Made by a program: the position numbers and the translations under genes. The notes beneath the pieces are model-generated. The model did not search any database. It was not told the origin of the DNA and worked only from the letters and a program-made list of their open reading frames with translations. From contig OX597833.1 in assembly GCA_951406725.2 (NCBI GenBank), positions 46,438,001-46,502,000 of the forward strand: DNA of 64,000 nt, given 5' to 3'. This DNA comes from Octopus vulgaris. Taxonomy: Eukaryota. Positions 4,331 through 55,957 of this stretch are shown piece by piece; the first letter of the stretch is position 1; each line of letters begins with the position of its first letter.

Positions 4331-4643
4331 CTTAGCTTAACTACGTGGAGAGGAACCAACAAGATTTAATTTCTCATTGCAATTATTTCAGAGATTTCCT
4401 GCGTGCTGTAGCGATAATCCTTAATCATCAGTGGTCAGGTTTCTTTAAGCAAATAGCCCAGCCTTGCCACTAACCCACGAAATTAAAACGCCAGAGTGAA
4501 GTAGGTCTTCCGGCGCAGATCAGTCTCATTATTACTTGGCTCCTGCGAAAGTTCTGTCTCAAGTTTCCTGAAACTACAAACAGACGGCGGATATTTTATT
4601 GCAGCGGTCGAGGAAAATCGCACGTGTACAAAAATCAAATACC

Positions 4644-5053
4644 TATTTCTTTATTACCCACAAGGGGCTAAACATAGAGGGGACAAACAAGGACAGACAT
4701 AGGTAGTAAGTCGATTACATCGACCCCAGAGCGTAACTGGTACTTAATTTATCGACCCCGAAAGGATGAAAGGCAAAGTCGACCTCGGCGGAATTTGAAC
4801 TCAGAACGTAGCGGCAGACGAAATACCTATTTCTTTATTACCCACAAGGGGCTAAACACAGAGGGGACAAACAAAGACAGACATAGGTATTAAGTCGATT
4901 ACATCGACCCCAGTTCGTAACTGGTACTTAATTTATCGACCCCGAAAGGATGAAAGGCAAAGTCGACCTCGGCGGAATTTGAACTCAGAACGTAGCGGCA
5001 GACGAAATACCGCTAGGCATTTCGCACGGCGCGCTAACGTTTCCGCCAGCTCG
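4644..5053 (-). mobile_element. SINE family 1 (tRNA head + Nin/Deu-like core), internal 184-bp dimer
   Basis: Core GCCTTTCATCCTTTCGGGGTCGATAAATTAAGTACC. 15-bp TSD CAAAAATCAAATACC at 4629-4643 and 5054-5068. Confidence 0.9.
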
Positions 5054-18150: not shown

Positions 18151-20013
18151 TTCTATTCCTATGCAGATAAGCATAGGTCCGCTGTCTCACCCGTCGATTC
18201 ACTGATCGGTGATAACGGTATTTTCCAACATGGTACTAAAAGAAATGGCAGAAGTACTGCAAAAACCATACTGCTCTGTCTTTAGTGATCTCACTGATAC
18301 TGACCTAAGGGATGTGAATGAAGTTGATTCTCAACATATAATCGTGGACATAACCTTTACTGCTTCAGATATCATAGCAGCAATAAATGACATCAAATAC
18401 TATTCTGCTGTAAGCTCTGATAGATTCCCCGCTAGTTTCCTGGTAGAATGTAGACACCAATTTGTAGTCCCTATATCCGACCTCTTGAGAAATTCTTAAA
18501 ACTCAGGTTATATACCGAAACAGCTCTTATCCCAGTTTGTCATCCCGGTTTTCAAACAGAGAAACAGATCCTTCGCAGACAACTATCGCCCAATTTCACT
18601 CACTTCCCATATCATTAAAGTGTTTGAAAGGTTGGTGAGATCAAGGATAGCTTCCTGGAGAGCTACAATCTCCTAAATTAAAACCAGTAGGGGTTTCGCT
18701 GCGGCAAAGACTGTCTAACACAGCTCTTACACCACATCGATGATCTCGTTAAAGCCTTGGGATCAGGTTCGAACTCTGTTGTTATATATCTTGACAAAAG
18801 CGTTCGACAGAATCGGTCACAATGTCCTACTGTTGGAATTGTCAAATGCTGGAATCCGTGGAACACTACTACACTGGACTGAATATTTCCTGGAGAACAA
18901 AACACAAGTGATCGATGTGGTCCATTCAAGCCCAGTGGAAGCCACCGGTGGTGTCCCTCGGGAGATTGTCTTGGGCCCGCTCTTCTTTAGAGTCTATATA
19001 TACGAACTTTCCAGCGTCATAGAGCACAGCAGGGTGAGAATGTTCGTTGATGATTCCAAGTTCCAGAAAATTATCAATGGAGAAGACAGAATTGAACTCC
19101 AGTCTGATCTACATGCTGTGAGTCAATGGCCAGACAAAAACAAAATGCAACTAAACGAGAAAAAATTTGAGCTGATGTATTTTGGAAGAAAGAATATACT
19201 AAAACAGCCATACTCTCTTCCTTCAGGGGAGCCACTCACAGCAACTAATAATATCAGAGACCACGGAGTAATTGTTGACAGCAATCTCAGCTAGGATGCC
19301 CACATCAACAATAAGGTCGATATAGCTCGTAGGATGAACTCCTAGATCCTAAGAACCTTCCAGTCCAGGGAACAAGGTGTCATCATTCCTCTTTTCTCCT
19401 CTTTGTACGGCCACATCTCGAATACTGCTGCTCCCTGTGGTCTCCCCATACAAAACAAAATATTTCAAAAATTGAATCACCCTAGAGAGCATTTACTAAA
19501 AGAATTAAGGGCATGACTGATCTCGATTATTGGGACCACCTTAAAGCATTGAAACTTTATTCTCTCCAGCGCTGCCGTGAGCGATACATCATTTGTACGA
19601 TGTGGAGAATATACCACTAGCATTGCCCAAACGGCCGCAACATTAGCTTCAAAATTCATCCAAGGCTAGGACCACGGGCCATACATCCCCTACCCAATTC
19701 AGGATCACAGCACATAAATACACTGCAACACAGTTTCTTTTCCTCAACAAGCCCTGCCCGATTTAACATTGTTCCGAAACAGATCAAAGAAGAAAAGGAT
19801 CCGATCACCTTTAAACGGAATCTGGACAGATTTCTTCAAGGAATACCGGATAAGCCACCTATTCTGGATACAACACACTCAACAACAACTCCCTATTCTA
19901 AAGGACCATGAAACCATAAAACTTGACTTTAAAAGGATTTAGCTAATCCTATCAGGTGGTGCTATTAAGTTAGGCATGGCCTGGACCAATCTTTGGTCGA
20001 AACATATCTAAGT
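18150..20013 (+). pseudogene. CR1-clade LINE ORF2 (RT) and 3' UTR, 5' truncated, many stops and frameshifts
   Basis: NYRPISLTSHIIKVFER, Q*GFR, KAFDRIGH, GVPREIVLGPLFF, MFVDDSK, IRDHGVIVDSNLS, VRPHLEYCCSLWSP, LYSLQRCRER. Confidence 0.92.
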
Positions 20014-25058: not shown

Positions 25059-25218
25059 TATATATATATATAGATATATATAAACTTACTTGGAGAAGCG
25101 AAACGAAGAGAAACGACGCGTGCGTTCGATCATATAATAACAATATAATAAATACATAAAATATATGCATATATACATACATATATGTACATACTTACAT
25201 CTACATGTATATATACAA

Positions 25219-25259
<41 letters not shown>

Positions 25260-25402
25260 AGTACAGGACACCACAAATAAACGTAGAACACGAGAAACGA
25301 AAACAAAATCAAACAAGGAATGCTTGTATATATACATGTAGATGTAAGTATTTACATATATGTATGTATATATGCATATATTTTATTTATTTATTATATT
25401 GT

Positions 25403-25433
<31 letters not shown>

Positions 25434-25649
25434 GCAATAATAATTCTCTAAATGAGATATAGACAGTAACTGCTCCATAACATAAGGGACTAAAGCCATC
25501 TGAATATGGCTAGGGACAGGGCAGGGTGGTAGGGGTGTTACTGTTGCATTTAGCCCCAGGCGAACATCAACGTCGCCAGATAGGCTTGACACCATCACGG
25601 CGTCCTCTATCCTGCAAAGGGAGATAATTCACCGATGAAGCGGAAACCA

Positions 25650-25694
25650 CACACGGACCTAGGTTTCAAGGTGTTTGCCTATTATCAACGTATG
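25650..25694 (-). ncRNA. Type I HHR (U3-A8 core)
   Basis: CATACG-TTGATAA-T-AGG-caaaca-CCT-T-GAAAC-CTAG-GTC-CGTGTG. Confidence 0.8.
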
Positions 25695-26066
25695 GTAGGC
25701 ACCGCTTCCTCGACGAACAACTCACTCTGCAGGATATTTATATATAGATTTTCAAGCAAAATACATTTGCTGATTTCGAAAATCTGTTCGACAGCAATAA
25801 TAATTCTCTAAATGAGATATAGACAGTAACTGCTCCATAACATAAGGGACTAAAGCCATCTGAATATGGCTAGGGACAGGGCAGGGTGGTGGGGGTGTTA
25901 CTGTTGCATTTAGCCCCAGGCGAACATCAACGTCGCCAGATAGGCTTGACACCATCACGGCGTCCTCTATCCTGCAAAGGGAGATAATTCCCCGATGATT
26001 TTGCTTGAAAATCTATATATAAATATCCTGCAGAGTGAGTTATTCGTCGAGGAAGCGGTTGCCTAC

Positions 26067-26111
26067 CATACGTTGATAATAGGCAAACACCTTGAAACCT
26101 AGGTCCGTGTG
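26067..26111 (+). ncRNA. Type I HHR (U3-A8 core), predicted cleavage after 26105
   Basis: Same motif as 25650-25694. Palindromic loop III (CTAG). Confidence 0.8.
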
Positions 26112-26474
26112 TGGTTTCCGCTTCATCGGGGAATTATCTCCCTTTGCAGGATAGAGGACGCCGTGATGGTGTCAAGCCTATCTGGCGACGTTGATGTTCG
26201 CCTGGGGCTAAATGCAACAGTAACACCCCAACCACCCTGCCCTGTCCCTAGCCATATTCAGATGGCTTTAATCCCTTATGTTATATATATATATACATAT
26301 ATATATATGGTTACTGGCGCCCCAGGCAAGCTGAACTTTGGCGTGTACAAGCTGACGGTCGTGGAAATGTCCTTGTTTTTGTCACGCCCTCCTTGTCACC
26401 CTCTAGTACATGGCGCCCCGGGCGACTGCCCGAGTTGCCGGTACCTTGAGCTGGCTCTGGGTACTGCATTAGCT

Positions 26475-36404: not shown

Positions 36405-38198
36405 AAAATATATAGGTATGTCTATGTATGTGTGTGTGTTTGTGTCTGTCTTTGTGCTTGTGTTTGTCTCCCACCACTATTTGGCAACCGGTGTTGATTT
36501 GCTTCGGTCCCCCTAATATAGCAAAAATTCGCCAAAAGAATACGTCCCAAGTTTTAAAAAAATAAATGGTAGGATCGATTCGTTACACTAAAATCCAGTA
36601 TGGCCGCAGGTTAATGACTGAAACCAATAAAAGGTAAAAAGTTATGTATTTGTGTATGTTTATATGTGTGTGTGTGTATGTGTATATGTGTGTGTTTATT
36701 TTAACCAATTTAATATTAAGACAGTCGTATTTTCCAACAATATTTATGATTCGTATAAAATGTAGGTTTCATGCAAATCATAAATCTTAATTCTTTGAGA
36801 AGTAGAAGGAAACGAAAGGTAAACTGCTGAAAAAAATGATCACGCACGTAGCCATCTTCAAAGGAGATATGTGCAAGTACTTCGTGTTTTATAGAAATAT
36901 GCGATATTCTCTTTAACAAATGTCTGTACTGGAATTTAATAACTGGACTTTGTTATGGATGCCAAATTTGTTCTAAAATTTTCACCTCTACGTACTACAT
37001 ACACTTATTCATTCATTCATGTATTCATTCATTCATTCATATATACGTACATACATAAATTGTAAAGTATTTCAGGCATGCTCCGTGTGAGGTTCCTGAG
37101 TGAAACTAAGCACGCAATCACATATACACGCATGCACAATTATAAAGAGTAACTAAACATACATATACTTTTGATTTAACGTGATAAGTATACCCACAAG
37201 CGCAAGTTCATCCTCACGACTACACATATACTCGACACAGATGCACATATATACACATCAACCGATTCAGTTAAACTCAAGCCCAAAGAGCTTCATTTAA
37301 AAGAGCCTTACCACTTCCCGGCAAAGAAGAAACACATACTAACATACCTGCATACATATATACATTTAAACACACATGCATACATGCATGCATACACGAA
37401 TACATGCACATATAAATGCATGCATACATACGTTCATCTATGCATACATGCATACATACTTGCATGCATGCATACATTATGTACAGACATACATACATGC
37501 AGACACAAATACATACAAACATGCATACACATGCATACATACATACATACATACATACATACATACATACATACATACACACATACATACACGCATATAT
37601 ATTTGCGTGCATACATACAAGTATACATATATACATGCATCCATACATATACGCCTGCATAGACACATACATACATACATACATACATACATACATACAT
37701 ACATACATACATACATACATACATACATACATACATACGTAAATACATACACACATTCATACATACATGCACACATGTATGCGTATGGGAGCCGGTGTAT
37801 GTGCGTGCGTGCATATATATCTGTGTGTGAGAGGAGAGAATGAAAGAGCAAAGATGATTACTTTCTCCAACAGACAACGATTATAGTTATTTTTTTCTCG
37901 TTTATTCCACCAAAACTTTCGTAAACCACATTTCCCTCCTACCACTACCAACACAGCAGATCTCATCCGGCTTCCATTTCTCTAAAAAACACTTATAATT
38001 ACAATTAAACCTAATTACGTCATATGTAAACAAATATAGGTTTGTTTTTGAAGCGCTAAAATATATTGTGGTACAAGTATTTTTAACGTGTAAGTACTGA
38101 TAGAACAGCGTATATAGGAAAATCCTTATAGAGCAGAAAAATATGTCAGCAACCAGTCTGCTGACAGATTTTTCTGCTCCGTAAGGATTTTGTCCTAT

Positions 38199-38674
38199 TG
38201 AAATTTTGTGTCTAAAGTCCAACTGGTGACGTTGATCGCCTGGGGCTAAAAGCATCAGTAACACCCCACCCCCAGTGGCTAGCCACATTCAAATGGCTAG
38301 TACACCTTACGTTGTCGAGCGGTTACTGTTTATATCTTGTTCAGAGATTTATTAATGCTTTCAGACAGTTTTTCTAAATCAGTGACTGTGGTTGCTGTGA
38401 AAAACGTTAAATATTATTATTTGCAGAGGGTCTCCTTCATCGAAAACCGGTGTTTACCATGCGTTGACGAGAGGCAATTACCTTGAAACTATAGTCCGTA
38501 TGTATCACTTAGGTTTTCGAGGGAGGATGACCTCCCTTTGCAAATAACACAAGGGCACTGAAATTTTGTGTCTAAAGTCCAACTGGTGACGTTGATCGCC
38601 TGGGGCTAAAAGCATCAGTAACACCCCACCCCCAGTGGCCAGCCACATTCAGATGGCTAGTACACCTTACGTTA
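38199..38674 (+). mobile_element. Retrozyme-like element, 360-nt monomer x1.3, ending at TA tract
   Basis: 38201 = 38561. Diverged homologue of 25433-26283. Confidence 0.85.
38458..38502 (+). ncRNA. Type I HHR (U3-G8 core), predicted cleavage after 38496
   Basis: CATGCG-TTGACGA-GAGG-caatta-CCTT-GAAAC-TATA-GTC-CGTATG. Confidence 0.8.
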
Positions 38675-39036
38675 TATATATACTGTTCTATCAGTACTTA
38701 CACGTCAAAATATATATCTTTCTCCCTGTACTACAATAAATCTAACATTTATTCATAAGGCGATTATTTTCCTAATTGCCCTTCTTTTCATTTTTCTTTT
38801 CTTTTTTCTGTTTTATTGTATTTTATTCAGTTATTTCTTCTCTTTTTTCGATACAGACGATAGGAGACAGAACATCTGTTTAAGCTTTTCTGTCGCGACA
38901 CGACACACAACTTCCGGTCAAATACTATCTGAGTATATATTTGTTTACATGTATGAATGTGTAGTTAAAAAGTTCGCTTCTCATGACGCGGTTTCTGATT
39001 TGATCCCTTTACCTGGGAACTGAGTAGAAGTGAAAC

Positions 39037-39797
39037 ATCTTTATTGCCCACAAGGGGCTAAACATAGAGGGAACAAACAAGGACAGACAAACGACCCCAG
39101 TGCGAAACTGGTACTTTATTTATCGACCCCGAAAGGATGAAAGGCAAAGTCGACCTTGGCGGAATTTGAACTCAGAACGTAACGACAGACGAAATACCTA
39201 TTTCTTTACTACCCACAAGGGGCTAAACACAGAGAGGACAAACAAGGACAGACGAACGGATTAAGTCGATTACATCGACCCCAGTACGAAACTGGTACTT
39301 TATTTATCGACCCCGAAAGGATGAAAGACAAAGTCGACCTTGGCGGAATTTGAACTCAGAACGTAACGACAGACGAAATACCTATTTCTTTGCTATCCAC
39401 AAGGGGCTAAATACAGAGGGGACAAACAAGGACAGACAAACGGATTAAGTCGATTACATCGACCCCAGTGCGAAACTGGTACTTATTTAATCGACCCCGA
39501 AAGGATGAAAGACAAAGTCGACCTCCGCGGAATTTGAACTCAGAACGTAGCGACAGACGAAATACCTATTTCTTTACTAACCACAAGGGGCTAAACACAG
39601 AGGGGACAAACAAGGACAGACATAGGTATTAAGTCAATTACATCGACCCCAGTGCGTAACTGGTACTTAATTTATCGACCTCGAAAGGATGAACGGCAAA
39701 GTCGACCTCGACGGAATTTGAACTCAGAACGTAGCGGCAGACGAAATACCGCTAGGCATTTCGCCCGGCGTGCTAACGTTTCTGCCAGCTCGCCGCT
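39037..39797 (-). mobile_element. SINE family 1 tetramer (184-bp internal unit)
   Basis: GAAATACC recurs at 39191, 39375, 39559, 39743. Confidence 0.92.
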
Positions 39798-40243: not shown

Positions 40244-41029
40244 CTTGTTAAATTTCTTCCAGCCTCTTCATATTTTTAAAATTTTCACCAGATTATTTTG
40301 GAAACAAAAATGAAGTTCTAATATAATGTAAAGTATAGAAGCCATCTTATCATGGCTAACCACATTGGGGAGGGGGTATTACTGTAGCTTTATAGCCCCA
40401 AGAGATGTTCGTTTCTAGCTGGCTTTAGACACAATATCAGTGTCCTTGGACGAAGACGAAGATCTCTTGGGGCTATAAAGCTACAGTAACACCCCCTCCC
40501 CAATGTGGTTAGCCATGATAAGATGGCTTCTATACTTTACATTATCGAGCGATTACTGTTTCAATCTCATTCTGAGATTTAATTATGCTGAGTTCTAATA
40601 TAGTTTCAACGAAAATCGCATTCACTCTTTCTAAATAATAATGAAATAGTTACAAGTATCTAAAACTATGTAATTCTAGTCAATCGACGCCTCGATTACC
40701 AAATATACCAGAAGGTGTGACAGTTTGTTTCTATGGGAGCGGCACACGCGAAACCTTTACTTGATCTCACGATTTGCTAGAAATCGCAACCCAAGGGAAA
40801 AAACAGTGACGACTTCCGGTATATTCAGCAGTCAAGGCTTCGATTGGCTAAAACTCGTACATACTTGAAAACTGTTTTATTTATTAAGTTTTAGAAAAAG
40901 AGAAAGCGACTTTTCGTTATCAGCATGCGCAAACACATCATAACTACATTTTTTTCTGAATAAAATAATCTGGTGAAAAACTTGGAGTTGCTGGAAAAAA
41001 TTTAACAAGTTCCAAAGACCTTGATAAAA
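40244..41029. mobile_element. Old MITE with ~70-bp imperfect TIRs, host of the 40322 insertion
   Basis: CTTGTTAAATTTCTTCCAGC...TTTTCACCAGATTATTTT versus AAAATAATCTGGTGAAAA...GCTGGAAAAAATTTAACAAG. Confidence 0.65.
40322..40590. mobile_element. Truncated, inverted third member of the 360-nt family
   Basis: Arms 40322-40406 and 40462-40546. 12-bp TSD AGTTCTAATATA at 40314-40325 and 40591-40602. Confidence 0.8.
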
Positions 41030-55912: not shown

Positions 55913-55957
55913 TCGTCACTGAGGAGACGAAATTAGTCGAAACATCGGGTCTGGCGA
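55913..55957 (+). ncRNA. Type I HHR with fully canonical core, predicted cleavage after 55951
   Basis: TCGTCA-CTGAGGA-GAC-gaaatta-GTC-GAAAC-atcgg-GTC-TGGCGA. Confidence 0.85.

Follow-up and report, generated by a model that had tools for sequence, protein, structure and literature searches.

The insert at positions 40326-40590 of a 64,000-nucleotide stretch of Octopus vulgaris DNA (the window, meaning the whole stretch that was analysed) raises a simple question. How does a short repeat without a reading frame of its own come to be inserted as two arms that face each other? The insert consists of two arms of a 360-nt repeat, arranged head to head, and it is flanked by two copies of the 12-mer AGTTCTAATATA on the plus strand (40314-40325 and 40591-40602). 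The initial annotation had described the insertion as bounded twice by this 12-mer, and a scan of the whole window bears this out, since the 12-mer stands at both borders and occurs nowhere else on either strand. It is also the only exact 12-mer repeat at a spacing of 277 among 53,912 non-microsatellite start positions. When the spacing is allowed to vary by 10 in either direction there are 22 matches, and the 21 others fall within low-complexity tracts.

The two arms end at different places. The inverted arm (40323-40448, minus strand) covers offsets of about +54 to +177/179 of the repeat unit and terminates at a position called site A here. The direct arm (40455-40590, plus strand) covers about +92 to +223/224 and terminates at a second position, site B. 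Between them, at 40449-40454, lies a local duplication of 6 nt in which GACGAA occurs twice (40449-40460). The arms are 98% complementary across 90 nt. About 38 nt of 5' sequence in the inverted arm are absent from the direct arm, and a tail of 45 nt running from site A to site B (40546-40590, plus strand) is present in the direct arm alone. The last three letters of the left 12-mer, ATA (40323-40325), also fit the site A end of the element; thus the stagger at this locus is 9-12 nt.

Two further loci of the family were found in the window by BLAST and profile search, making three in all, with the insert above being locus 3. The profile search, run with nhmmer and a four-sequence model, returned only these three in the window, two weak matches (E 0.14 and 0.44) being set aside. 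Locus 1 is also inverted. Its long arm (25433-25998, minus strand; 566 nt or 1.57 units) reads through one GUC, the predicted ribozyme cut discussed below, and has its 3' end at site B beside (TA)n. Its short arm (25998-26284, plus strand; 287 nt) has its 3' end at site A, again beside (TA)n. The arms overlap by 1 nt at 25998, and the A-ended arm is entirely nested within the B-ended arm. Locus 2 is a single direct arm (38199-38675, plus strand; 475-477 nt, 1.3 units) with its 3' end at site A. Thus two of the three loci are inverted, and two of the three are partial tandems.

In loci 1 and 2 the period is exactly 360 nt, and the unit closes on itself at this period in two subfamilies that are about 74% alike. 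The loci are 70-77% alike, compared with 98-99% between the arms or units inside one locus; each inversion therefore arose at or after its own insertion. The GC content of the unit is 0.44 and 0.43, and the monomer folds better than shuffled sequences (z -3.7 and -4.6). No open frame runs through the unit, stops being present in all three sense frames tested, and one long frame over locus 1 has no match in Pfam. A 20-base pattern of the family had no matches in metagenome contigs and none in viral contigs. At one position of a C-rich run, the copies within locus 1 carry three different bases, C, T and A (approximately 25889, 25529 and 26230), hinting at either an error hot spot of the reverse transcriptase (RT) or more than one template.

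Loci 1 and 2 contain predicted hammerhead ribozymes. A scan of the window with Rfam gave no matches at the gathering score, and the hammerheads were called by a motif scan for a type I core with a paired stem I. Two predicted cores are found in locus 1, at 25656-25688 on the minus strand (cut after GUC at 25656) and at 26073-26105 on the plus strand (cut after GUC at 26105), both of them U3-A8 variants. The predicted core of locus 2 (38464-38496, plus strand; cut after GUC at 38496) is a U3-G8 variant. These pairs replace C3-G8, and in the same scan a stem III of two pairs is seen round a palindromic tetraloop. A U3-A8 core is described in a Schistosoma Penelope-like element (PLE) in the available text of PMC4209133. 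The motif scan found no hammerhead in locus 3. Each arm in the window has one hammerhead or none, so that a direct tandem of two is missing from every locus and none of these loci could release a monomer. A separate hammerhead-like motif at 55919-55951 (plus strand) has a C3-G8 core and a stem I paired at 6 of 6 positions. It shows no match to the 360-nt family in BLAST or profile searches and is possibly the pLTR remnant of another PLE.

The ends of the arms are the main evidence for how the family is inserted. The three loci provide five 3' ends, three at site A and two at site B, with an A end and a B end in both inverted loci. The site A ends, at 26284 (plus), 38673-38675 (plus) and 40323-40325 (minus), lie +177 to +179 after the GUC and all stand directly before a [GC]GAGC motif. 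The site B ends, at 25433 (minus) and 40590 (plus), lie at +223/+224, so that the two sites are 44-46 nt apart. The five 5' ends, by comparison, are scattered (+18, +253, +63, about +54 and about +92). When five random ends were placed on a 360-nt unit, equal clustering occurred in 106 of 2,000,000 simulations. The rule of one A end and one B end rests on two inverted loci. Three claims of the initial annotation hold up here: that one end is common to all three loci, that the opposite arm runs about 45 nt further in both inverted ones, and that the ends lie away from the hammerhead cut. Its placing of the locus 2 end at 38674 is correct as to site A; the final A has no counterpart in the upstream unit, which has G at 38314, and is common to element and target. 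Termination at the ribozyme cut was rejected, as none of the five 3' ends and none of the five 5' ends is found there.

The region of the two sites has a predicted fold that is common to three subfamilies. In it, a CAGUAAC/GUUACUG stem encloses site A together with a C-rich run and a small hairpin, and a second hairpin precedes site B. Across the three sequences only 1 of 29 pairs between A and B is changed on both sides, so that the support from covariation is weak and the fold, based as it is on invariance, is a candidate RT-binding domain only. Some 20 nt upstream of site A, a conserved ATG opens a stretch of 22 codons, free of indels, that reaches site B (40524-40590 and the homologous sites at all three loci) and has a stop near its end in two of the three. 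This recalls the PLE pLTRs that, in the available text of PMC3846280, can include the start of an ORF; the hairpin explains the conservation equally well.

The target duplication is less constant than the ends. At locus 2 it is at most TAT (38196-38198 and 38675-38677). This limit comes from an internal control: the element interrupts a multi-copy palindrome of the host (38060-38198), whose right arm resumes at about 38678-38735, and the uninterrupted arm of the palindrome represents the empty site. At locus 1 any duplication is masked by the surrounding (TA)n. The length is therefore variable, locus 3 having 9-12 bp and locus 2 no more than 3 bp. The 12-bp duplication of the initial annotation is thus real at locus 3, at 9-12 bp; a fixed 12-bp duplication as a trait of the family was rejected.

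Two of the three loci lie in or beside AT-rich palindromes of the host (25132-25222 with 25320-25410, and 38060-38735). Locus 1 abuts an inverted repeat of 91 nt at 98% likeness. Such a neighbourhood may reflect a preference of the endonuclease for cruciform or TA-rich DNA. Another interspersed repeat of 184 bp, presumably an octopus SINE-like family, has tandem copies at 4637-5011 and 39092-39750.

Contigs from public sequencing runs provide a view of the family beyond the window. Contigs from 4 of 24 runs (two from organism A, one from B and one from C) were aligned to 37850-38950 at 80% likeness; locus 2 was chosen for having site A, site B and the GUC all in its interior. The 24 listed runs include none of RNA, which says nothing either way on expression. 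In most bins the summed depth on the unit is in the tens of thousands or higher, compared with 7-39 on the unique left flank, which indicates that the family is abundant, depth not being a copy number. At 38360, which is site B inside locus 2, loose ends were found in 29 contigs of run X1 and in 22 of run X4. Their agreement is only 0.54 and 0.50, and so many unlike flanks adjoin site B. This position is listed in two of the four runs, among 24 of 744 rows listed. Most other rows inside the unit that involve several contigs have an agreement of 0.85-0.99 (0.66-0.92 for those at 38489), and they look like subfamily variants. Depth also falls across site B in all four runs, by 7.7, 8.9, 9.9 and 10.0-fold; subfamily divergence beyond B could account for part of this drop.

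Among the same 24 of 744 rows listed, there is no pile of loose ends at site A and none at the GUC. For site A the test is probably blind, since the reference has this site within a direct repeat of 115 bp, where contigs would fit two places. Near the GUC, the rows at 38489 (3-4 contigs, three runs) continue through GTC. One X1 contig with a depth of 108.6 joins opposite strands, from 38451 to the predicted cut at 38496, in one of the four runs. If this joint is head to head, the cut would coincide with the 5' end of an arm, a hint that the template is sometimes cleaved RNA.

The contigs also bear on locus 2 itself. A joint that skips it, from 38195 to 38675 with 3 shared letters, is present in all four runs, with paralogous host repeats a possible source; like the host palindrome, it sets TAT as the upper limit of the duplication. 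In organisms B and C, contigs of the single-copy flank halt at 38196 and restart at 38677 or 38673, never entering the element; flank contigs of X1 do enter it. This suggests an orthologous empty site in B and C, with none of the listed pieces spanning both unique flanks. In X4 the right flank has zero cover and is uninformative.

The closest known parallel for these features is the insertion of PLEs. According to the available text of PMC8557442, PLE insertions include an inverted 5'-truncated copy, a tail of 30-40 bp at one end and a bias towards microsatellites. That of PMC3846280 reports duplications of 8-10 bp around inverted pLTRs, and pLTRs that are sufficient in cis. The 360-nt family likewise has two positions for its 3' ends, an inverted 5'-truncated arm and a short duplication of variable length in AT-rich or microsatellite DNA. 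As far as the accessible portions of PMC3846280, PMC8557442 and PMC8969392 describe EN+ PLE insertions, the resemblance covers the head-to-head 5'-truncated arm, the tail at one end, duplications of 8-10 bp or none, partial tandems and microsatellite targets. Compared with those insertions, the 360-nt family has no ORF between its repeats, loci 1 and 3 have no palindrome at the inversion junction, and the tail and the duplication are slightly longer.

An experimental counterpart is PAc, a Poseidon PLE of the lizard Anolis carolinensis. In the available text of PMC11167929, the purified protein nicks and extends both strands of the target, prefers AT-rich DNA and begins reverse transcription at two internal sites that bound the tail. 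Ribozyme cleavage is unnecessary, the RNA used being mainly uncut; a dimer is predicted. The octopus family shares with PAc, as that text presents it, two internal sites downstream of the hammerhead (in PAc that of the pLTR) that bound a tail, AT-rich targets, ends off the ribozyme cut and an A/C-rich stretch by the first site. The two differ in that PAc is autonomous, with its tail in the start of an ORF, whereas the 360-nt unit is ORF-less and closed on itself. The PAc tail is given as 30-40 bp, compared with 45 nt, and its first site as about 85-92 nt past the cut, compared with 178 nt.

The octopus repeat was also considered as an autonomous PLE. This was rejected, given a closed unit of 360 nt, stops in three sense frames and no Pfam match. 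Among 80 frames listed for the window, three of which were sent to Pfam, none was identified as a PLE ORF. A fragment of a reverse transcriptase at 18719-19291 (plus strand) matches Pfam RVT_1 with E 1.6e-08. By its motifs it is presumably LINE-like rather than PLE-like.

The repeat unit has another set of relatives. Like the unit of a retrozyme, it has a type I hammerhead motif, a length within 150-450 nt, a GC content below 50% and no coding capacity. The metazoan non-LTR retrozymes, in the accessible parts of PMC7229834 and bioRxiv 10.64898/2026.07.22.740005, are similar in their type I hammerhead and their well-folded, non-coding tandem units of about 360 nt and <50% GC. Duplications of >4 bp and a proposed dependence on PLEs are further points of likeness. 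Two consecutive hammerheads, the mark of a retrozyme, are present at no locus in the window; this and the U3-A8/U3-G8 core set the octopus family apart. From co-occurrence and the phylogeny of pLTRs, the available text of bioRxiv 10.64898/2026.07.22.740005 argues that animal retrozymes are derived from PLEs. That text and the part of PMC7229834 available draw the PLE link without mapped insertion ends or tailed inverted arms. The family appears to behave like a non-autonomous PLE, and in its sequence it resembles the unit of a non-LTR retrozyme from an animal. An active non-autonomous PLE is reported from Chlamydomonas in PMC9977147, whose available text says nothing about tails.

Taken with the junctions, these likenesses suggest that the 360-nt ORF-less hammerhead repeat was probably inserted in trans by the reverse transcriptase and GIY-YIG endonuclease of a PLE, starting at two internal sites 45 nt apart. 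The window directly yields the ends, the duplication, the geometry of the arms and the reading through the GUC. At locus 3, the endonuclease would first nick both strands of AT-rich DNA at points separated by 9-12 nt, and so expose two 3' ends. Extension would begin at site B (+223) for one of them and at site A (+178) for the other, and a 3-nt ATA/UAU match may have helped. The two cDNAs would be copied separately from RNA, would halt at scattered points and would be joined head to head through 1-2 nt of microhomology. Finally, repair would fill the stagger and so create the target duplication. Priming on one side only may give direct-only copies such as locus 2. The RNA would be uncut at the ribozyme, most likely a tandem transcript and possibly a circle. 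The initial annotation had proposed PLE-type priming at two internal sites, and all the junctions in the window agree with this. The idea was largely in print already, since the same was demonstrated for an autonomous PLE in the available text of PMC11167929.

The form of the template is where the next explanation departs. The initial annotation had taken the two end sites to fit a circular or multimeric template. The template was indeed probably longer than one cut monomer: the GUC is read through in three of the five arms, and two arms (566 and 475 nt) are longer than the 360-nt unit, which excludes a cut linear monomer as their template. The pair of end sites is in itself no argument for a circle, since the lizard PLE makes such ends from linear uncut RNA, as described in the accessible portion of PMC11167929. 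A rather doubtful possibility is that the template was a covalently closed monomer circle, formed by ribozyme cleavage and ligation and copied for more than one round from the same two starts; the PLE priming step is common to both explanations, and only the template differs. This is the retrozyme model in the available text of PMC7229834, which reports retrozyme circles of similar size in mussel and other animals. A unit that closes on itself at a period of 360 in two subfamilies, arms of more than one unit and monomers that fold better than shuffles all agree with a circle. The same arms are explained by an uncut multimer, however, and the two direct-tandem hammerheads that the release of a monomer would take are absent from every locus in the window. 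In the text available, the RNA that the lizard PLE uses is unprocessed, and the three bases at one position of locus 1 are a weak hint of more than one template. Uncut tandem transcript and circle would both fit, and the PAc data appear to favour uncut RNA.

A bolder form of the same idea, which is unlikely, is that a Penelope RT acts as a dimer and primes the two nicked strands simultaneously, its subunits sitting at different fixed sites (A or B), each on its own ribozyme-made circular RNA. If this were true, asymmetric double priming would have left the 45-nt tail as its footprint, and the circles of animal retrozymes would be direct templates for transposition.

Another model concerns the origin of the inverted arm. 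Here priming occurs once, at site B, the inverted arm arises when the cDNA folds back or switches template, and the endonuclease resolves the intermediate at site A. Self-priming and resolution models of this kind have been published for PLEs (in the available text of PMC3846280 and PMC8557442). Locus 1 taken alone is also compatible with fold-back, its A-ended arm being fully nested in the B-ended one with a junction overlap of 1 nt. At locus 3, however, the A-ended arm extends about 38 nt further in the 5' direction and the B-ended arm has 45 nt extra, so that neither arm could have been simply copied from its partner unless there was an extra deletion. Since each arm holds sequence that the other lacks, two separately templated cDNAs are favoured there. 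Locus 3 argues against simple fold-back of one cDNA; locus 1, with its nested arms, does not discriminate. Locus 2 also stops at site A with no inverted partner, and both sites are RT starts on both strands in vitro in the accessible text of PMC11167929. Fold-back is thus an improbable explanation for the family.

A foldback DNA element, or a later inversion by DNA rearrangement with the shared ends inherited from one or two founder copies, is scarcely credible. Locus 3 does resemble terminal inverted repeats with a target duplication, but the arms differ by a tail that is constant, the positions of the 5' ends vary, the duplications are unequal (9-12 vs <=3), the loci are 70-77% alike while the arms within one are 98-99% alike, and the flanks at site B are heterogeneous in the contigs.

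The probable insertion by a PLE from two internal starts has a limited and definite meaning. The junctions of the 360-nt family reveal no new mechanism, and no account of the family or of mapped retrozyme termini was found in the openly accessible papers. What is new is modest: a closed, ORF-less, retrozyme-like unit that bears the published insertion signature of PLEs. As far as the available papers go, the earlier argument that PLEs mobilise such units in animals was one of co-occurrence and sequence likeness, and to this the octopus family adds support at the level of junctions. It also places the probable cis signal within some 120 nt that surround the two sites, a region small enough for a direct test in vitro.
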